A DNA stretch of 64,000 nucleotides from Octopus vulgaris (taxonomy: Eukaryota), in assembly GCA_951406725.2 (NCBI GenBank), contig OX597815.1:147994001-148058000 (forward strand). Direction: 5' to 3'. A program made the position numbers and the translations under genes. Below the pieces are notes generated by a model. It was not told the origin of the DNA, did no database searches, and worked only from the letters and a program-made list of their open reading frames with translations. Of the stretch, positions 1 through 61,730 are shown one piece after another; position 1 is the first letter of the stretch, and the number at the start of each line of letters is the position of its first letter.

Positions 1-1437
1 ACGGCTCACAGAAGAAACTAAACACATGAAATTTACTTGAACTTATCAAAGGACCCCTGTGGATGTGGTAAACCCCTACGACTTATTTATTGAAATTCAC
101 ATTAACTCTGATTTAGCACCTGATACCTTTTTAAGTTTATGTTCGATTCTAACTTTACGGGACACATTGGATGCCTATTGCCTAAAGTTGATGTTGAAGA
201 CACTACTATACCTGGAACAACCAGGCGGACCTCCAGTGAGCAATAAGCCCCGGCGTGTTATTTATTGATTTTGTCTATTGTAATGTAGAAAAGGGCCATA
301 GCGTCGATAAGTGGTAGTCCCACAAGATGAATTTCGACTCAGTTGGTAATCATTTACTGCAGATGAATATAGAATGAGACACATTTACTTCCATAAAAGT
401 TCAAACTGCCACTATGAAACAGCATCAGAACTTGGGGAGGATATTATGGCTGTTACCCGCAATAAGATAAAGTAACACACGTTCTTTATCACTTGAATTT
501 CTGCAAGTTAACAGCCACGGGAGTGCAGTGATCCCATTCGGGCCTCTTTTAAATTCATATTATGGTCACAGCAAAGCATTTTAATTTCTGGAATTAACAG
601 TCAATTTAAACGAAATTTGACGCATCGGTTACTCTTGAACTATAAACGGAGTAGCGAATGTTTAAATCCTCCTGACTAAACTTTAGTTTGCTGAATTACA
701 TTTAAGATTATTGAATTTAATTTTGTTCCCAGGTTGTCTCTCGCTTCATTTCACACTCCTAACCTAGTGTAAATTTTAATGTCTACTCTATATGGATTGA
801 GCAATTTCACAATCATACCTAAACTGTGCGAATGATTGATTGCGTTTTGCACCCAGTTGTCTGCCCCGTTTAATTGCACCCCAGTTAAATGCGAAATGGC
901 GACCTCTGAGCTGTGTTCTGCAGATTTCATGACATTTGTATTATGCAATCAATCAGACAAATATAGTGTTGTTCATTAAATGAAATCATTCCTATATGCG
1001 TGTCAAGTCTGTCCTAGGATCACATTTCATTTTTGGCTTTTGACAAATGGTAGGTATCTTTTTACTTGCGTACTCTCATACACTATCCCGTGTTTCTGAA
1101 ATGTATCCGTATTCAACATTTGTCACCTTAATTGAGGTTTATCTTATTTGATTATGGTCATAAGGTTTCAGTTTACCATGCTGTGATCGGAAATTTTTGC
1201 CTGCATCCTTTCAATAGTTAATATTTTCTTATTGCTATTGTTTCGAACGCGAAAAAATATACTGATTTCGCGTTCCCTCGACGCGAACGTCGCTCCCGAG
1301 TTTTGAAAGAAAATGAAGTAAAAGCAAACAGAAAAGCCGAATTCTCTTTTAAAAGAGCCGTATTTGACAGAAGTCTTTCGGTTCATTTGAACGACTACTC
1401 TAGATTTATACCGGGCAACGCCGGGTACCTCTGCTAG
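1..1437 (+). mobile_element. Helitron-like element, 3' terminus (body extent uncertain; 5' end not identified)
   Basis: Subterminal hairpin TACCGGGC-AAC-GCCGGGTA (1409-1427) followed by CTAG (1434-1437) and then T, the canonical Helitron 3' signature. No Rep/helicase coding recognised upstream. Confidence 0.6.
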
Positions 1438-3538: not shown

Positions 3539-3757
3539 AAGGCAGTGAGCTGGTAGAATCATTAGCACGCCGGGCGAAATGCGGTATTCCGTCTACCGCA
3601 ACGTTCTGAGTTCAAATTCCGGTCGACTTCGTATTTCATGATTTGAGGCTGGATTAAAAAAGTACCTGTTACTCCCTGGGGTCAATGTAATCGACTTACC
3701 TCCTCCCCGAATATTACAAGATTACTGCTCATGAAAAAGTGTTGTTGTTGTTGTTAC

Positions 3758-3811
<54 letters not shown>

Positions 3812-4195
3812 GGTGGTGAGGTGGTAGAATCGTTAGTAGGCCGGACGAAATGCTTAGCGTTAATTCTTCTGCCGCTACGTTCTGTGTTCAAATTCCGCCG
3901 AGATCAACTCTGCCTTTCATTCATTCGAGGTCGATTACATAATTACAATTTACGCAATGGGGTCGATGTAGTCGACTTAATCCGTTTGTCTGTCCTTGTT
4001 CGTCCCCTCTGTGTTTAGCCCATTGTGGGTAGTAAAGAAATAGGTATTTCTTCTGCCGCTATGTTCTGTGTTCAAATTCCGCCGAGATCGACTCTGCTTT
4101 TCATCCTTTCGGGGTCGATTACATAAGTACCAGTCACGCACTGAATCGATGTACTCGACATATTCCTTTTGTCTGTGAGTCACCTGTGGGCAATA
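3539..4195 (+). mobile_element. tRNA-derived SINE family B (core GTCGACTTTGCCTTTCATCCTTTCGGGGTCGA): monomer 3539-3720 and tandem dimer 3810-4195
   Basis: Head AAGGCGGCGAGCTGGCAG, B-box-like GAGTTCAAATTCC, and a shared core repeated many times in the window. The core resembles the Meta-SINE domain (from memory). Confidence 0.8.
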
Positions 4196-14219: not shown

Positions 14220-14482
14220 GGTAGTAAGCTTGCAGAATCTTTAGCACTCCGGACGAAATGCCTATTGATATTTCCTCTGCTGCTATGTTCTGAGTGCATA
14301 TTCTTCCAGGTCGTCTTTGCTATTCATCCTTTCCGGTTCGATAAATTAAGAACTAATTGAACACTGGTGTCGGTGTAATCGATTCATCCCCTCAGCAACA
14401 TGGCTACCCTTGTGGCAAAATTTGAAACAATAATGATAATAATAATAATAATAATAATAATAATTATTATTATTATTATTAA

Positions 14483-20920: not shown

Positions 20921-21108
20921 AGGCGGCAAGCTGGCAGATAAGGTTAGCACGCCGGGAGAGATGATTATCGGTATTTCGTCAGTCTTTACGTTCTCAGTTC
21001 AAATTCCGCCGAGGTCGATAAATTAAGTAGCAGTTACATATTGGGGTCTATCTAATCGACTGCCCCCATCCCCTAAAATTTCGGGTCTGGTGCCTAAAGT
21101 AGAAAATA
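20921..21108 (+). mobile_element. SINE family B
   Basis: AAGGCGGCAAGCTGGCAG head through the GTGCCTAAAGTAGAAAA tail. Confidence 0.8.
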
Positions 21109-21530: not shown

Positions 21531-21534
<4 letters not shown>

Positions 21535-21654
21535 ACAATAAAGGAACGGCCATAATAGGCCATTCACCCACTAGAAATAACAGCCAAAGCTTCAACCGCA
21601 AATAAAAGTTAATTCAGTAAACCAGGAGAAAATTTAAAAAACATTTACCCTGTA

Positions 21655-21761
21655 ATTTCTTATACGATATACCGTTTCATCTGCTGATTAATGGTAAACT
21701 AACCTGATTAAATTAAATCAAGCCAATCTTCCACAGGCCCTCAGATTCTTCAGTAAGAAAT
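21655..21761 (-). ncRNA. Type I hammerhead ribozyme (493-bp family)
   Basis: Reverse complement of 22962-23068. Confidence 0.88.
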
Positions 21762-22147
21762 AGCCCAAGACGGAACAGATATTTTCACGAGGCATTTCCG
21801 ACGTTGCCAAGTTAATATCTGACCTAAAATTTTCAAATCGTCGCACTCGCGCCAAATTTATCGGCAGCAAATAAATATAAGCCGTCGATTCCATTACGGA
21901 ATTAACCAGAAAATTCATAATTAATCAATATAGGGTGGCAAAAAAAATTTTGTAGAATTCTTTTGCCACCAGCGGCCTAGTAGGAAAAAATTAAAATAGT
22001 CATAGACCATTTTTAAGTTCAACATCAACAATAAAGGAACGGCCATAATAGGCCATTCACCCACTAGAAATAACAGCCAAAGCTTCAACCGCAAATAAAA
22101 GTTAATTCAGTAAACCAGGAGAAAATTTAAAAAACATTTACCCTGTA

Positions 22148-22254
22148 ATTTCTTATACGATATACCGTTTCATCTGCTGATTAATGGTAAACTAACCTGA
22201 TTAAATTAAATCAAGCCAATCTTCCACAGGCCCTCAGATTCTTCAGTAAGAAAT
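22148..22254 (-). ncRNA. Type I hammerhead ribozyme (493-bp family)
   Basis: Reverse complement of 22962-23068. Confidence 0.88.
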
Positions 22255-22961
22255 AGCCCAAGACGGAACAGATATTTTCACGAGGCATTTCCGACGTTGC
22301 CAAGTTAATATCTGACCTAAAATTTTCAAATCGTCGCACTCGCGCCAAATTTATCGGCAGCAAATAAATATAAGCCGTCGATTCCATTACGGAATTAACC
22401 AGAAAATTCATAATTAATCAATATAGGGTGGCAAAAAAAAATTTTGTAGAATTCTTTTGCCACCAGCGGCCTAGTAGGAAAAATTAAAATAGTCATAGAC
22501 CATTTTTAAGTTCAACTTCAACAATAAAGGAACGGCCATAATAGGCCATTCACCCACTAGAAATAACAGCCAAAGCTTCAACCGCAAATAAAAAGTTAAT
22601 TCAGTAAACCAGGAGAAAATTTAAAAAACATTTACTTTAGTTCCTTTATTGTTGATGTTGAATTGAAAAAACTTTTACTTTAGTTCCTTTATTGTTGATG
22701 TTGAACTTAAAAATAGTCTATGACTATTTTAATTTTTTCCTACTAGGCCGTTGGTGGCAAAAGAATTCTACAAAATTTTTTTTGCCACCCTATATTGATT
22801 AATTATGAATTTTCTGGTTAATTCCGTAATGGAATCGACGGCTTATATTTATTTGCTGCCGATAAATTTGGCGCGAGTGCGACGATTTGAAAATTTTAGG
22901 TCAGATATTAACTTGGCAACGTCGGAAATGCCTCGTGAAAATATCTGTTCCGTCTTGGGCT

Positions 22962-23068
22962 ATTTCTTACTGAAGAATCTGAGGGCCTGTGGAAGATTGG
23001 CTTGATTTAATTTAATCAGGTTAGTTTACCATTAATCAGCAGATGAAACGGTATATCGTATAAGAAAT
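22962..23068 (+). ncRNA. Type I hammerhead ribozyme (493-bp family), predicted cleavage after GUA at 23060
   Basis: ATTTCTTA-CTGAAGA-ATCTG..CAGAT-GAAA-CGG TATA TCG-TA-TAAGAAAT: 8-bp stem I, CUGANGA core, extended stem II, GAAA, stem III, GUA triplet. Confidence 0.9.
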
Positions 23069-23453
23069 TACAGGGTAAATGTTTTTTAAATTTTCTCCTG
23101 GTTTACTGAATTAACTTTTATTTGCGGTTGAAGCTTTGGCTGTTATTTCTAGTGGGTGAATGGCCTATTATGGCCGTTCCTTTATTGTTGATGTTGAACT
23201 TAAAAATGGTCTATGACTATTTTAATTTTTTCCTACTAGCCGCTGGTGGCAAAAGAATTCTACAAAATTTTTTTTGCCACCCTATATTGATTAATTATGA
23301 ATTTTCTGGTTAATTCCGTAATGGAATCGACGGCTTATATTTATTTGCTGCCGATAAATTTGGCGCGAGTGCGACGATTTGAAAATTTTAGGTCAGATAT
23401 TAACTTGGCAACGTCGGAAATGCCTCGTGAAAATATCTGTTCCGTCTTGGGCT

Positions 23454-23560
23454 ATTTCTTACTGAAGAATCTGAGGGCCTGTGGAAGATTGGCTTGATTT
23501 AATTTAATCAGGTTAGTTTACCATTAATCAGCAGATGAAACGGTATATCGTATAAGAAAT
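23454..23560 (+). ncRNA. Type I hammerhead ribozyme (493-bp family), predicted cleavage after 23552
   Basis: Same sequence as 22962-23068. Confidence 0.9.
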
Positions 23561-23946
23561 TACAGGGTAAATGTTTTTAAATTTTCTCCTGGTTTACTGA
23601 ATTAACTTTTATTTGCGGTTGAAGCTTTGGCTGTTATTTCTAGTGGGTGAATGGCCTATTATGGCCGTTCCTTTATTGTTGATGTTGAACTTAAAAATGG
23701 TCTATGACTATTTTAATTTTTTCCTACTAGGCCGCTGGTGGCAAAAGAATTCTACAAAATTTTTTTTTGCCACCCTATATTGATTAATTATGAATTTTCT
23801 GGTTAATTCCGTAATGGAATCGACGGCTTATATTTATTTGCTGCCGATAAATTTGGCGCGAGTGCGACGATTTGAAAATTTTAGGTCAGATATTAACTTG
23901 GCAACGTCGGAAATGCCTCGTGAAAATATCTGTTCCGTCTTGGGCT

Positions 23947-24053
23947 ATTTCTTACTGAAGAATCTGAGGGCCTGTGGAAGATTGGCTTGATTTAATTTAA
24001 TCAGGTTAGTTTACCATTAATCAGCAGATGAAACGGTATATCGTATAAGAAAT
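23947..24053 (+). ncRNA. Type I hammerhead ribozyme (493-bp family), predicted cleavage after 24045
   Basis: Same sequence as 22962-23068. Confidence 0.9.
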
Positions 24054-24276
24054 TACAGGGTAAATGTTTTTTAAATTTTCTCCTGGTTTACTGAATTAAC
24101 TTTTATTTGCGGTTGAAGCTTTGGCTGTTATTTCTAGTGGGTGAATGGCCTATTATGGCCGTTCCTTTATTGTTGATGTTGAACTTAAAAATGGTCTATG
24201 ACTATTTTAATTTTTTCCTACTAGGCCGCTGGTGGCAAAAGAATTCTATAAAATTTTTTTTGCCACCCTATATTGA

Positions 24277-24352
<76 letters not shown>

Positions 24353-24866
24353 TCTTATATATATATGTATATATATATATTTATTCATATATATATATGT
24401 ATATATTTATTCATATATATATATATATATACTTATTCATATATATATATATATATATATATTTATTCATATATATATATATATATATTTATTCATATAT
24501 ATATATATATATATATTTATTCATATATATATATATATATATATATATTCATATATATATATATATATATATAGTTATCCGTAATAATGAAGGGTGAAAT
24601 TAATTAATTTGGAATAATTATCAATTACCCCAAGTAGTCTTCGGCATGTAAAAGCCTCATTCGAGGAAAATTTAAGTAATACTAAGCAATAAGGGTTTAG
24701 CAACGAATTGCCTTACCACATACCGAATTTAGAAATAGCAGTCAAAGGGTTATAGCTATTTCTTCTACTAAAAAGGGAGATCTCAGTAAAAACAGCAATT
24801 GGAAGGCTGACACAAACAGGTAAGAGAGAATGAATTAACTGCAATCTATCATACATTTTAAAGTTA

Positions 24867-24973
24867 TCTACGGACGTACGTTTCGAAATCAAGTTTTTAG
24901 GAAAGCATAAGAATTAAATATTATATATTAAATAATTCTATCTTACCGAAACTTCTTTTCTCTTCAGCGTAGA
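24867..24973 (-). ncRNA. Type I hammerhead ribozyme (600-bp family)
   Basis: Reverse complement of 25573-25679, with small differences in the stem II loop. Confidence 0.87.
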
Positions 24974-25572
24974 ATACTATAATCATAAATGATTATATAT
25001 TGAATTTTGAGATACTAGGAGGCACCAACTCAACTCAGTATCAGAGCGAGCTAGAATCCGCAACTAATATCACCGAATTCAAATTTAAAAATGTATGATA
25101 GATTGCAGTTAATTCATTCTCTCTTACCTGTTTGTGTCAGCCTTCCAATTGCTGTTTTTACTGAGATCTCCTTTTTAGTAGAAGAAATAGCTATAACCCT
25201 TTGACTGCTATTTCTAAATTCGGTATGTGGTAAGGCAATTCGTTGCTAAACCCTTATTGCTTAGTATTACTTAAATTTTCCTCGAATGAGGCTTTTACAT
25301 GCCGAAGACTACTTGGTGTAATTGATAATTATTCCAAATTAATTAATTTCACCCTTCATTATTACGGATAACCATATTTTATCTCAGTAGATGACCACAG
25401 CATCTTGTTTTGGCTACACGCGGGTGGGAAGGGGCTGTTGACACAATCGTTTCATTCACAAATTTGAATTCGGTGATACTAGTTGCGGATTCTAGCTCGC
25501 TCTGATACTGAGTTGAGTTGGTGCCTCCTAGTATCTCAAAATTCAATATATAATCATTTATGATTATAGTAT

Positions 25573-25679
25573 TCTACGCTGAAGAGAAAAGAAGTTTCGG
25601 TAAGATAGAATTATTTAATATTTAATATTTAATTCTTATGCTTTCCTAAAAACTTGATTTCGAAACGTACGTCCGTAGA
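25573..25679 (+). ncRNA. Type I hammerhead ribozyme (600-bp family), predicted cleavage after GUC at 25673
   Basis: TCTACG-CTGAAGA-GAAA..TTTC-GAAA-CGTAC-GTC-CGTAGA: perfect 6-bp stem I, CUGANGA core, long stem II, palindromic stem III (ACGTACGT), GUC triplet. Confidence 0.9.
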
Positions 25680-25865
25680 TAACTTTAAAAATGTATGATA
25701 GATTGCAGTTAATTCATTCTCTCTTACCTGTTTGTGTCAGCCTTCCAATTGCTGTTTTTACTGAGATCTCCCCCTTTTAGTAGAAGAAATAGCTATAACC
25801 CTTTGACTGCTATTTCTAAATTCGGTATGTGGTAAGGCAATTCGTTGCTAAACCCTTATTGCTTA

Positions 25866-25924
<59 letters not shown>

Positions 25925-27939: not shown

Positions 27940-28490
27940 AATGTTTCAGCCCGAAAGCTGGGGCCATGCTGGGGGACTACCGTTGAAAGAGCTACACTAG
28001 TACGTGACACTACCTCTGATACGTGGAACTTGGTCAACAAGGGAGTTCGACATCGCTGCCCGCATCTGTGTTTCCTGCCAAGAGGTAGGCTCATCTGGAA
28101 CCCTTGACAAGAAGAGATCCAGTTTGATTTTCAAGAAACCCACATCCACACCATGCAGGTCTCTTAGGCATTTAGGAAGGATATTGAAGAGGTGTGGTCC
28201 CCTGAAACCCAAGCTGTTGCAGTATCTGGTCCTGTATTTTGATGGTGATGTTGGGATCTTTAGCACCATGCAGTGGCGCCCAGTTCTGATGTTGCGGTAA
28301 CTTTTAATGCCAACATTTGGGACGAGACCCTCCAGGATTTTCCAGATGTATATCCCTGCATATCTCTCCGGACTTCGTTCCAGTGAGAAGTGTTTTAATA
28401 CTTTCAGTTTTCCCAGTAGCTTATATGTTGCATCAAGACGATCTTCTTAGTGTAACTTCGTTGGATTGCTTCGAGGTCTGCTGTTAACTT
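27940..28490 (-). mobile_element. 5'-truncated older CR1-group LINE, 3' end
   Basis: ORF 27997-28269 (RGPHLFNILP..KLDLFLSRVPDEP) is homologous to the C-terminus of the 28632-30893 RT; 3' tail CAGCATGGCC..CTGAAAC. Confidence 0.85.
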
Positions 28491-28499
28491 TATATATAT

Positions 28500-28536
<37 letters not shown>

Positions 28537-28631
28537 AAAACTTAGATAAACTTAGATGTGTTTCGACCAGAGATTGGTCCAGGCCATGTCTAACTTAATA
28601 GCACCACCTGATAGGATTATTCGAATCCTGT

Positions 28632-30893
28632 TTAAGTCAAGTTTTGTTCAAGTAGTGAGTTCTTGTTGGGTGAGTTGTATCCAATTATGGGTGGCTTATC
28701 TGGTATTCTTTGAAGGAATCTATCCAGACTCTGTTTGAAGTTGATGGGATCCTTTTCCTCTTTGATCTCCCTCGGGACAATGTTAAATAGGGCAGGGCCT
28801 GTTGAGGAAAAGAAATTATGTTGCAGTGTACATGTATGTTGTGATCTTGAATTTGGCAGGGGACGTATAGCCCGTGGTCCAAGTCTTGGATGAACCTTGA
28901 AGGTAATGTTTAGGTCATTTGGGCATAGTTGGCGGTATATTTTCCACATCGTACAAATGATGTACCGCTCACGGCGACGCTGGAGGGAGTAAAGTTTCAA
29001 GGCTTTAAGGCGATCCCAATAATCGAGAGCAGCCATGCCTTCAATTTGTTTAGTGAGAGCCCTCTGGGGTGACTCAATTCTGGAGATGTTTTGTCTTGTG
29101 TGAGGAGACCACAGTGGGCAGCAGTATTCAAGGTGTGGCCGTACAAAGGAGGAAAAAAGTGGTATGATGACACCTTGTTCTCTGGACCGGAAAGTTCTTA
29201 AGATCCAGGAGCTCATCCTACGAGCTATATCGACCTTCTTGTTGATGTGTGCACTCCAACTGAGATCGTCATCAACAATTACACCCAGGTCTCTGATATT
29301 GTTAGAGGCTGTGAGCGGTTCCCCTGAAGGAAGAGAGTATGGTTGTTTTAGTGAGGAATTTCTTCCAAAATGCATCAGCTCAAATTTTCCCTCATTCAGT
29401 TGCATTTTGTTTCTGTCTGCCCATTGACTCACAGCATATAGATCAGACTGGAGTTGAGTTCGGTCTGCTTCTTCATTGACGATTTGCTGGAGCTTAGTGT
29501 CATCAGCGAATATTTTCACTTTGCAGTGATGTACGACACTGGAAAGGTCGTTTACGTAAATTAAGAAGAGTAGCGGACACAAAACAGTTCCCTGGGGAAC
29601 ACCGCTGGTGACTTTTGCTGGGTTTGAGTGAACTCCATCAACTACAACATGTTGTGTTCTATTCGCCAGGAAATACTGAATCCAGCGTAGAACTTTTCCA
29701 CGGATTCCAACATTTGCCAATTTTGAGAGTAGGATGTTATGGTCTACCCTGTCGAACGCTTTACTGAAGTCAAGATATATGACGTCAGAGTTCGAACCTG
29801 TTCCCAAGGCTTTGAGTACATCTTCAATGTGGTGTAAGAGCTGTGTTAGACAGTCCCTGCCACAGCGAAAGCCATGCTGATTTGAATTTAGGAGTTTGTG
29901 GGTCTCCAGGAAGTCAGCTAGCCTTGATCTTAACACTCTTTCAAACACTTTAATGATGTGGGAGGTGAGTGAGATTGGGCGATAGTTGACTGCGAGGGAT
30001 CTGTTTCCCTGTTTGAAAACCGGGATGACCGACTGGGATAGAAACTGTTTCGGTATATAACATGCGTCTAACGAGTTTCTCCAGAGGTTGGTCAAAGGGA
30101 CTGCAAGTTGATATCTACATTCCTTCAGGAGACTAGCGGGAAATCTATCAGGGCCTACAGCAGAGTAATGTTTGACCTCATTTATTGCTGCTACGATGTC
30201 GGTGGCAGTGAAGGTTATGTCTGCGATTTTGTGTTGGGAGTCAACTTCGTTCGTTTCCCTCACATCAATATCAGTGGGAGCACTGAAGATAGAGCAGTAT
30301 TGTTTCTGTAGTATTTCTGCCATTTCTTTAGCATCGTGTTGGGGAATGCCGTTATCATCAATCAATGGCCCAATGGGTGAGACAGTGGTTCTATGCTTAT
30401 TTGCATAAGAATAGAACACTTTTGGGTTCTGTTTTATGTTTTTGATTACCCATTGTTCCTCCACAGCTCTTTGATTTTCAATGGAGGTTTTCATGTTAGT
30501 CTGCAGATGAAGTTTTTCCAGCTCTAGTCTTTTCATTGTTGTTGAATGTGAATGTTGTGTGTGGGAATATTTTAATTGGTTGATTTTTTTGTTGAGTCTT
30601 TTGATGCGCCTGATGAGTGTTTTTTTCTTTTTAGGGAGCCGGTTTCTGTTTGTGTTAGTAGATTTCTTGGGAGCGTGTTTAGAGCATGTATAGGTGACAA
30701 TGGTTTCAAAGTGCTGCCACGCGGTCTCAATATGAGGGGAATTGAGAGTAAAAGACCAGTCGATGGAAGACAGATTCTTTCTGATTGTTCCCCAGTCCGC
30801 TTTGTGGAAGTTTATGTTGTCAAATGGGTGCCATGGAGTGGGATTGGCTGGTTTGGTTTTTATATGTCGGGAATTAGGATTGCAGAATACCAT
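28632..30893 (-). CDS. LINE ORF2 reverse transcriptase portion (frameshifted from APE near 30890)
   Basis: NYRPISLTS, QHGFR, YLDFSKAFDRV, GVPQGTVL, IFADD, RDLGV, RPHLEYCCPLWSP. Confidence 0.95.
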   Translation of the reverse strand: MVFCNPNSRHIKTKPANPTPWHPFDNINFHKADWGTIRKNLSSIDWSFTLNSPHIETAWQHFETIVTYTCSKHAPKKSTNTNRNRLPKKKKTLIRRIKRLNKKINQLKYSHTQHSHSTTMKRLELEKLHLQTNMKTSIENQRAVEEQWVIKNIKQNPKVFYSYANKHRTTVSPIGPLIDDNGIPQHDAKEMAEILQKQYCSIFSAPTDIDVRETNEVDSQHKIADITFTATDIVAAINEVKHYSAVGPDRFPASLLKECRYQLAVPLTNLWRNSLDACYIPKQFLSQSVIPVFKQGNRSLAVNYRPISLTSHIIKVFERVLRSRLADFLETHKLLNSNQHGFRCGRDCLTQLLHHIEDVLKALGTGSNSDVIYLDFSKAFDRVDHNILLSKLANVGIRGKVLRWIQYFLANRTQHVVVDGVHSNPAKVTSGVPQGTVLCPLLFLIYVNDLSSVVHHCKVKIFADDTKLQQIVNEEADRTQLQSDLYAVSQWADRNKMQLNEGKFELMHFGRNSSLKQPYSLPSGEPLTASNNIRDLGVIVDDDLSWSAHINKKVDIARRMSSWILRTFRSREQGVIIPLFSSFVRPHLEYCCPLWSPHTRQNISRIESPQRALTKQIEGMAALDYWDRLKALKLYSLQRRRERYIICTMWKIYRQLCPNDLNITFKVHPRLGPRAIRPLPNSRSQHTCTLQHNFFSSTGPALFNIVPREIKEEKDPINFKQSLDRFLQRIPDKPPIIGYNSPNKNSLLEQNLT

Positions 30894-36282: not shown

Positions 36283-36759
36283 GCTACTATATGCTATGTC
36301 TACATTTCCATACATATCTCTCTCAGAACCAGCCTTAATACATAGATTTACTTCTCAGTATATTAAATGATATAAGGTTGTGAGCTTCCAGAATTGTTAG
36401 GACATTGAAGAAGACGCTGAACACAATTTCGTTCGTCTTCACGTCCTGGGATCAAATGCCGCCAAGCTCGACTTTACCTTTTATGGTTTCAGGATAGATA
36501 AAGTAAGTAGCAATTGAATGCTGCGTTTAATGTAATCGACTTATGTCTTACCTAAAATTGTGATGGAATTTCAAGGACAAGCTTAGAAAGATGTATTCCG
36601 CCACATTACTATTTCTGAGTACATTAGGAATGCTGCCTTCTAAGACGGAGGAAATATAAGACAGATGAAATGGTGCTACGCATTTTACCCGGCGTGCTAA
36701 CGATTTGGCAAGCTGGCTGCCTAAACTACAACAAAAACTACAATAATATGAGTGATAAT

Positions 36760-57686: not shown

Positions 57687-58090
57687 AAGGCGGCGAGCTG
57701 GCAGAAAGGATAGCACGCTGGGCGGAATGTTTAGCGGGATTTCATCTGCCGTTACGTTCTGAGTTCAAATTCCGCCGAGGTCGACTTTACCTTTCAACCT
57801 TTCGGGGTCGATAAAATAAGTACCAGTTACGCACTGGAGTCGATGTAATCAACTTAATCCCTTTGTCTGTCATTGTTTGGCCCCTCTATGTTAAGCCCAT
57901 TGTGGGCAATAAAAAAATAAGAAACGTTAACACGCTGGGCGCAATGCTTAGCGATATTTCGTCTGTCTTTACGTTCTGAATTAAAATTCCGCTGAAGTCG
58001 ACTTTGCCTTTCGTCCTTTCGGAGCCGCGATCTAATCGACTGGCCCCCCTCCCACCAAAATTCGGACTTTGTGCCTAGAGTAGAAAAGAA
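57687..58090 (+). mobile_element. SINE family B dimer
   Basis: Two successive heads and cores; possible degenerate TSD AATATTT..ACCTG. Confidence 0.85.
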
Positions 58091-59855: not shown

Positions 59856-60384
59856 CGTTTCTACTGTAGGCACAATGTCCTAAATTTTGGGGGAGGGGCC
59901 AGTCGATTATATCTACCTCAGTATGCCACTGGTACTTTATTTATCGACTCCGAAATAATGAAAGCAAAGTCGACCTCAGGGTAATCTGAATACAGAGCGT
60001 AGGGACATACGAAATACCTCTGGGCGAAATGCTTAGTGGTATTTAGCCTGCCGCTACATTCTCAGTTCAAATTCCGCTGAGGTCGACTTTGCCTTTCATC
60101 CTTTCGGAGTCGATAAATTAAGTACCAGATATGCGCTGGGGTCGATGTAATCGACTTAATCCCTTTGTCTGTCCTTGTTTGTCCTCTCTGTATTTAGCCC
60201 CTTGTGGGTAGTAAAGAAATAGGAATTTCGTCTCAGTAAGTTCTGAGTTCAAATTCCGCCGAGGTCGACTTTGCTTTTCATCCTTTCGGGTCGATAAATT
60301 AAATACCAGTTGCGTACTGGGGTCGATGTCATCGACTAGCCCCTTCCACGGAAATGTATGTCTTTGTGCCTAGAATAGAAAAGC
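59856..60384. mobile_element. Head-to-head SINE B composite (- 59856-60020, + dimer 60020-60384) with a 16-bp TSD (2 mismatches)
   Basis: TATGGATCAATATATT (59840-59855) versus TATGGTTTAATATATT (60385-60400). Confidence 0.8.
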
Positions 60385-61119: not shown

Positions 61120-61730
61120 AGGCAGCGAGTTTGCAGAAACGTTAGCACGCCAGGTGAAATGCGTAGCCGTATTTCGTCTGCATTACGTTGTGAGTTCAAA
61201 TTCCGCCGAGGTCGAATTTGCCTTTCATCCTTTCGGGGTCGATTGAATAACTACCAGTAACGCACTGGGGTCGATATAATCGATTTAACTCGTTTGTCTG
61301 TCCTTGTTTGTCCTTTCTGTGTTTAGCCCCTTGTGGATAGTAAAGAAATAGGTATTTCATCTGCCGTTACGTTGTGAGTTCAAATTCCGCCGAGATCGAC
61401 TTTGCCTTTCATCTTTTCGATGTCGATAAATTAAGTATCAGTTACGCACTGGAGTCGATGTAATCGACTTAATCCCTTGTTTATCTACTTAATCCTTGTT
61501 TGTCCACTCTATGTTTAGTCCCTTGTGGGTAGCAAAGAAATATGTATTTCATCTGCCACTACGTTCTGAGTTCAAATTCCGCCGAGGTCGACTTTGCCTT
61601 TCATCCTTTCGGGGTCCACTAAATAAGTACCAGTTATGCACTGGGTCGATATAACTGACTTAACCCATTTGTCTGTCTTTGTTTGTACCCTCTGTGTGTA
61701 GCTCCTGTGGGCAGTAAAGCAATAAGAAAG
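61120..61730 (+). mobile_element. Tandem trimer of SINE family B (~180-190-bp units)
   Basis: GAGTTCAAATTCCGCCGAG at ~61192, ~61376 and ~61568. Confidence 0.9.

Follow-up and report, generated by a model that had tools for sequence, protein, structure and literature searches.

A young non-coding hammerhead repeat in octopus TA microsatellites, likely a retrozyme, with two fixed 3' ends

Between two TA microsatellites of the Octopus vulgaris genome (contig OX597815.1; the window analyzed here is a stretch of 64,000 nucleotides) lies a short repeat made of one direct and one inverted arm, each carrying a hammerhead motif, which raises the question of which RNA was copied at this locus and by which enzyme. 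The first-pass annotation had described a second, distinct hammerhead family with a 600-bp period beside a 493-bp one and proposed that it was copied from a cleaved or rolling-circle RNA template. We regard the element as a non-coding hammerhead repeat, likely a non-autonomous retrozyme for which a Penelope-like enzyme acting in trans would have copied head-to-tail RNA; this reverse transcriptase-endonuclease is probably of the Neptune type. By class, the 600-bp element very probably represents a new family of animal non-LTR retrozymes.

The element occupies positions 24574-25868 of the window (Table 1), and unit positions are numbered with +1 at 25674. Self-BLAST gave a period of 600 and 1.31 units for the direct arm, in agreement with the annotated 600-bp period and 1.3 units; the two arms are about 98-99% alike, and the left boundary of the inverted arm falls at 24569/24574. 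With 1.31 plus 0.86 units, two hammerheads in tandem are absent from this copy. The inverted arm reads through an intact cut site and has its 3' end at the far site (~+300). The direct arm begins 8-14 nt past the equivalent of the cut site, the exact base being blurred by the junction microhomology, so that the annotated 10-13 nt was a fair reading. Because an uncut site lies inside both arms, the template of this copy was not a cleaved monomer.

Table 1. Features of the 600-bp family insertion and its TA flanks (positions in the window)
Feature	Position	Strand	Remark
Left (TA)n target microsatellite	24282..24573		also separates the element from an independent 493-bp family insertion
Inverted arm, 0.86 unit	24574..25086	-	5' end at unit position ~388-391
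Inverted hammerhead copy	24867..24973	-	one stem II loop substitution
Head-to-head arm junction	25081..25086		6-nt microhomology AAATTT
Direct arm, 1.31 units	25081..25868	+	3' end at near site (+195)
Two-site module, conserved	25200..25377	+	homologous in five families; putative function
Type I hammerhead motif	25573..25679	+	predicted cut after C25673; activity predicted
Right (TA)n target microsatellite	25867..25921		flank

The hammerhead in the unit is of type I. Stem I is TCTACG/CGTAGA, the core CTGAAGA starts at 25579, stem II comprises 76 nt with the closing pair GAAA/TTTC and AAGTTT/AAACTT above it, and stem III, after GAAA, is the 8-nt palindrome ACGTACGT; the cut site is predicted from this arrangement. 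Stems, core and palindrome all stand where they had been annotated, and the annotated inverted copy is present with a single base different. Against shuffled sequences, the hammerhead alone folded no better (z -1.2), whereas the whole 600-bp unit did (z -4.8). In a free cofold of two copies, the palindromes paired between the copies in the minimum-energy fold (-49.6 versus 2 x -18.6 kcal/mol), and the two copies are modeled to cofold into a double hammerhead, so the dimer that the first-pass annotation had predicted from the palindrome is borne out in silico. Rfam at gathering scores gave no match in the whole window, and on the element it gave a single chance match (E 1.8) and detected no hammerhead.

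The motif is not a product of chance, because two short exact probes returned 689 and 495 matches genome-wide and the reversed controls returned none. These exact matches amount to at least 689 hammerhead-bearing units and, together with the self-BLAST, confirm a second, distinct family. The genome-wide copy search proposed at first pass showed that the core CUGAAGA, GAAA and GUC are kept in 145 of 150 complete hammerheads at 91 loci; the commonest variant changes the palindrome to ACGTGCGT, which retains self-pairing via G-U. The length of stem II ranges over 69-84 nt, with the bottom of the stem conserved. Copies were 95-100% alike among 196 matches from the best 40 of 2218 candidates in our search of the octopus's own genome. 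They form short arrays dispersed over most chromosomes, and the longest single-arm array has 5.8 units, so that two or more consecutive units do occur. The longest ATG open reading frame (ORF) in the unit is 47 aa, no reverse transcriptase plus GIY-YIG ORF was found in the unit and no tRNA gene in the element, and the GC content of the region is 0.29, TA flanks included. Family pieces were present in all four sequencing runs sampled, in contigs of guessed type that are silent on strand, ends and level. The 600-bp family is young and non-coding, and it has entered TA microsatellites hundreds of times, often with two back-to-back arms.

The 3' ends of the family fall at two sites about 105 nt apart. 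Our unbiased set came from an exact probe placed close to the 3' end, and all insertions in its first 100 matches were taken (60 insertions and 93 arms, with 3 small distant matches dropped). Of these 93 arms, 55 end at the near site (+180-205), 36 at the far site (+285-306) and 2 elsewhere. Inverted pairs, counted with wider windows (170-205 and 265-306) than single 3' ends, combine one near and one far end in 31 of 32 cases, and the single arms divide into 23 near and 6 far. Nearly every arm end (93/94) runs into (TA)3. The element has a tail of ~105 nt at one end only, plus a partial tandem and an inverted 5'-truncated copy. By analogy with Penelope-like elements, two fixed 3' ends, one per arm, are the signature of a Penelope tail with two start sites. 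The first-pass annotation was partly right about the template, and it overlooked that the 3' ends fall at two fixed sites and that the insertion pattern is of the Penelope type. We found no paper on the one-site-per-arm rule; supplements of retrozyme studies may list such families.

A module of ~170 nt spans both 3' ends and is common to the 600-bp family and at least four related families. It contains a TGCTATTTCTAA box. Helix P1 (25219-25227 with 25298-25306) encloses a hairpin and the near end (~25268), hairpin P3 lies at 25315-25353, and the far end is at ~25363-25377. RNAalifold returned three helices with a covariation term of -0.11, and across nine related sequences the pairing is kept in 96% of cells with double changes in 3 of 22 pairs. 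Covariation support for this structure, which was first noticed by eye in the sequence, is modest. The module is predicted to be a landing pad for the enzyme. A profile of the module found no match in the 493-bp family at E up to 5, and equivalents of P1, P2 and P3 in that family were seen by eye only.

The 5' ends are mostly scattered across the unit, with a 2- to 4-fold enrichment just past the cut site and read-through in ~91% of passes. In the unbiased set, 6 stops fell at +1 to +20 versus 2.9 expected (P 0.07), and 66 of 72 passes read through. The score-ranked 600-bp set, which shares nine insertions with the unbiased set and was counted only past the lap that the query imposes, gave 7 versus 2.0 (P 0.005) and 77/84. 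The 493-bp family, for which 28 arms were entered from an earlier determination, gave 9 versus 2.1 (P 0.0003) and 91/100. Four 5' ends in these counts were corrected by hand. Other strong hairpins in the unit showed no comparable pile-up, and the 20-nt window 101-120 held 5 stops versus 2.1 expected. The copy ends suggest that the RNA was cut only occasionally, and a minority of the arms may owe their 5' end to a ribozyme cut; an excess of the same kind would also arise from enzyme stalling at the ribozyme fold. Several of the cut-site stops fall on the second to fifth lap, that of the direct arm here on the second. Such stops after full laps call for a template with both uncut junctions and a cut end, or for a stall at the fold, and they fit partly cut multimers rather than monomers or circles alone. 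An RNA template of head-to-tail units is well supported. The cleavage step of the first-pass inference could not be shown from this one arm; across copies, the modest end excess speaks for that step, and the prevailing read-through and the two uncut arms at this locus speak against it.

The units within an insertion are largely uniform. Cut-site junctions are free of indels in 132 cases for the 600-bp family, from 135 anchor matches, and in all 88 for the 493-bp family, which argues against end-to-end template jumping at the cut site, an explanation that we rejected. Among the minor alleles of 40 insertions, counted without segments below 93% identity, 144 are fixed in all covering units, 91 occur in a single unit and 10 are intermediate, 7 of these in one mosaic insertion. 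Nine private alleles are fixed, 5 of them across both arms, including one in the present element. This uniformity fits one circle per insertion, and likewise uniform source arrays or later gene conversion. Alone among the 40 insertions, the nine-unit L033 (G000:C5:14401496-14406882) combines units of several subfamily haplotypes in a mosaic. In L031 (G000:C6:79262400-79266850), a short TA/GT tract lies between two sub-arrays of the same orientation whose last full units have one variant in common, possibly a local re-insertion from its own transcript. The mosaic and this repeated variant keep linear multimers in play. In L238, the units are mixed and fit no single linear register.

The neighboring 493-bp family insertion (21531-24284) ends at +131 and +239 and follows the same near/far rule. 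That family has a 68-nt stem II, a longer stem III, ~99% identity (very young) and arrays of up to 9.35 units. Cross-family covariation between the two had been claimed at first pass; the architecture is indeed alike, but the sole stretch shared outside TA runs is an 18-nt match, and the comparison is one of analogy only. True sequence homologues of the 600-bp hammerhead with altered stems are present elsewhere in the genome. A compound 493+600 element was rejected, as the 493-bp family adjoins only 2 of the 60 insertions. One 493-bp family insertion (L234:2040-3637) lies outside TA, with an apparent short target duplication TAGTTCTC and an adjacent reverse transcriptase fragment. Elsewhere in the window, inspection by eye suggests a coding fragment of a LINE-type reverse transcriptase, higher in GC, at ~28100-30000 and beyond (minus strand), and there are dispersed copies of one SINE-like repeat family (3620-4143, 14237-14392, 20940-21018, 36393-36549, 57706-58020, 60008-60345 and 61169-61724, the last a 192-bp tandem triplet).

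At least four further non-coding families of the same plan occur in TA tracts of the examined loci. In their hammerheads the stem I pairs differ, the core is CUGAUGA, CUGACGA or UUGAUAA (the U3-A8 variant described in a passage of PMC4209133), stem II measures ~25-52 nt, and the stem III palindromes differ but are kept; one family was read by eye. Across six families the core, stem I and palindrome are kept and the flanks diverge. Non-coding hammerhead families with the module were seen at L176:390-1848, L274:510-1160 and L297:446-1070 (units of ~556, ~549, ~560 bp and others), and also at L207, L209, L212 and L218; at L116:2740-3430 a module-sharing copy has a degenerate core. Homology of the 600-bp family to the GIY-YIG loci L127 and L146 was rejected, since the matches are separate related non-coding insertions in adjacent TA tracts.

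The octopus genome has intact TA-targeting Penelope-like elements that could be partners of the repeat. They have hammerheads, a 35-40-nt tail of their own, direct pseudo-LTRs (pLTRs) with a minimal hammerhead, and TA flanks. Their 765-aa ORF combines a reverse transcriptase with a C-terminal GIY-YIG domain and a CxxxxCxxC linker, by which the element appears Neptune-like. One intact young element (L150:930-6172; G000:C16:20834000-20842000) has two ORFs, one of 346 aa with no clear family followed by that of 765 aa, and a U3-A8 minimal hammerhead in its pLTRs. Many 781-codon open frames of this type occur genome-wide, and the type is, judged from its sequence, probably active. Among 57 overlapping loci from 148 GIY-YIG hits, with the best 150 of 6136 candidates scored, no autonomous element ended in the module, and in the 57 overlapping GIY-YIG loci sampled no pLTR homology was found between the unit and autonomous families. 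By eye, a short GC-rich-then-TTTC box resembles the 3' ends of Penelope-like elements. In the examined loci, reverse transcriptase fragments lie only beside family copies, TA-separated or far.

Earlier publications already describe the class of retrozymes, activation as a dimer, the tail and the tie to Penelope elements. Non-LTR retrozymes, and the proposal that they depend on Penelope elements, appear in passages of PMC7229834 and bioRxiv 10.64898/2026.07.22.740005; like the present family, the animal representatives are non-coding AT-rich tandem units with one type I hammerhead each, which co-exist with Penelope-like elements and are proposed users of their enzymes. The 600-bp unit lies above the 150-450 bp given in the passages of Cervera and de la Pena 2020 (PMC7229834) and within the 51-972 bp given in those of Li, Clavereau and Pollet 2026 (10.64898/2026.07.22.740005), and its 69-84-nt stem II contrasts with the 4-8 bp helices described for animal hammerheads in the passages compared. 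Inverted arms, TA targeting and two fixed ends do not appear in the compared passages of the retrozyme papers, and the words "inverted" and "microsatellite" have no occurrence in the main text of PMC7229834. According to the same passages, circles were demonstrated in other animal retrozymes (PMC7229834), and cleavage failed in 8 of 9 Xenopus retrozyme dimers (bioRxiv 10.64898/2026.07.22.740005).

The insertion pattern resembles that of Penelope-like elements. In the passages compared, endonuclease-bearing elements of the Neptune and Poseidon clades (PMC8557442, PMC3846280, PMC11167929, PMC4209133) likewise show partial tandems, an inverted 5'-truncated copy, a one-end tail, microsatellite targets (TA in PMC8557442 and PMC3846280), a palindromic stem III hammerhead and two internal start sites. 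The present unit differs in having no reverse transcriptase or GIY-YIG ORF, no pLTR homology to any autonomous family sampled, and a tail of ~105 nt instead of 30-40 nt. In vitro, a Penelope-like enzyme cleaves AT-rich DNA on both strands, and its starts lie at two internal sites of the RNA that bound the tail; hammerhead mutants did not affect insertion there, cleavage being unneeded, and for PAc no RNA-seq reads ended at the cut site (PMC11167929). Chlamys elements such as MRC1, as characterized in passages of PMC8557442, are also non-coding Penelope-like derivatives with multicopy head-to-tail insertions, but they generally match an autonomous 3' end, mostly have no canonical hammerhead, and belong to another clade and host. 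Newt satellite 2 and other dimer-cleaving hammerheads share the short palindromic stem III and the dimer predicted in tandem transcripts (passages of PMC6765202 and PMC7229834), dimer cleavage itself being published (PMC6765202); here stem II is much longer, and the copies are dispersed young insertions with retrotransposon scars. Our literature search found no paper on these octopus families, which supplements of retrozyme studies may list, and none that joins twin priming, Penelope and hammerhead; searches on octopus hammerheads and cephalopod retrozymes returned nothing about these elements. The main text of an octopus repeat annotation has no occurrence of "hammerhead" or "ribozyme".

We propose that a tandem copy would be transcribed into multimeric RNA, in which two hammerheads could pair via their palindromic stem III; their weak cleavage would yield partly cut multimers and some monomers that possibly circularize. 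The enzyme would bind the structured module and nick both strands of a (TA)n tract, and each free end would prime a cDNA through short AU-rich matches, with one start falling at the near site and the other at the far site. Both cDNAs would extend upstream over 0.1-9 units, stopping mostly at random and sometimes at a ribozyme-cut 5' end, and would then join head to head via 0-12 nt of microhomology. Arms that stop at the cut site after at least one lap need a linear, partly cut template, and circles would probably regenerate the long uniform arrays. This likely explanation rests on the observed tandem ORF-less units, TA targets, two 3' ends used one per arm, scattered 5' ends, intact junctions and near-uniform units within an insertion. 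Counting against it, the 5'-end excess reaches only P 0.07 in the unbiased set, and the ranked sets either overlap that set or belong to the neighbor family. Further points against it are the lack of a module-bearing autonomous element among the 57 loci sampled, the other possible sources of uniform arrays, the mixed units of L033 and L238, insertion in vitro that did not need cleavage, the uncut Xenopus dimers and the modest covariation in the module.

That weak excess would be expected if the ribozyme were effectively inert for mobility, with uncut read-through multimers as templates and an excess due to enzyme stalling at the fold. We consider this unlikely. The high read-through favors it, as do the insertion-neutral hammerhead mutants in vitro and the lack of PAc RNA-seq ends at the site (PMC11167929). 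Conservation of the core, stem I and palindrome across six families, with 145 of 150 copies intact, counts against it, as does the lack of a comparable pile-up at other hairpins (window 101-120 notwithstanding); any lengthening of the arrays would also require circles or template jumps. At the other extreme, each insertion could have been reverse transcribed from one covalently closed 600-nt monomer by a pure rolling circle. Private alleles fixed over all units and both arms, seamless junctions, the strongly folded unit and the circles shown for other animal retrozymes in passages of PMC7229834 agree with this, which is quite unlikely, since cut-site stops on the second to fifth lap would go unexplained without stalling, and the mosaic array L033 and the shared variant in the two sub-arrays of L031 point elsewhere.

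Two further readings dispense with an independent retrozyme unit. The copies could be 5'-truncated pLTR remnants of an autonomous Penelope-like element with its ORF upstream of the unit, given that their architecture equals truncated Penelope insertions as shown in passages of PMC8557442 and PMC3846280, and the search for an autonomous family scored only the best 150 of 6136 candidates. We find this highly improbable: upstream, the arms run on through further laps of the 600-bp unit, several in number, until they meet TA or the inverted arm, and in the examined loci the reverse transcriptase fragments stand only beside the copies, separated by TA or far. TA tracts are recombinogenic, and the tandem and inverted layout could also suit a satellite or fold-back repeat that recombination between such tracts had spread at the DNA level. 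The end statistics largely refute that reading. It is barely credible, given that the 3' ends are fixed and strand-specific, 5' truncation is scattered, near and far ends alternate, and the copies are spread over most chromosomes in short young arrays.

A non-autonomous retrozyme reverse transcribed from head-to-tail RNA remains our preferred explanation of the locus. A very doubtful extension of it is replication at the RNA level, in which a circular monomer would be copied viroid-fashion into uniform linear multimers with ribozyme-cut 5' ends, which a dimeric Penelope enzyme on the 105-nt two-site module would then reverse transcribe into both nicked strands. If true, this would account for the uniform arrays, the private alleles in both arms and the late-lap cut-site stops, and the 600-bp unit would be an animal genome-encoded viroid-like replicon. 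The unit bears on two questions raised in PMC8557442 and PMC11167929, namely how Penelope-like enzymes build tandem-plus-inverted insertions and whether their hammerheads cut in vivo. Being young, short, non-coding and high in copy number, with a conserved fold and two start sites mapped, it offers a convenient RNA for testing them, and the one-site-per-arm rule and the small cut-site end excess provide genomic readouts of priming and cutting.
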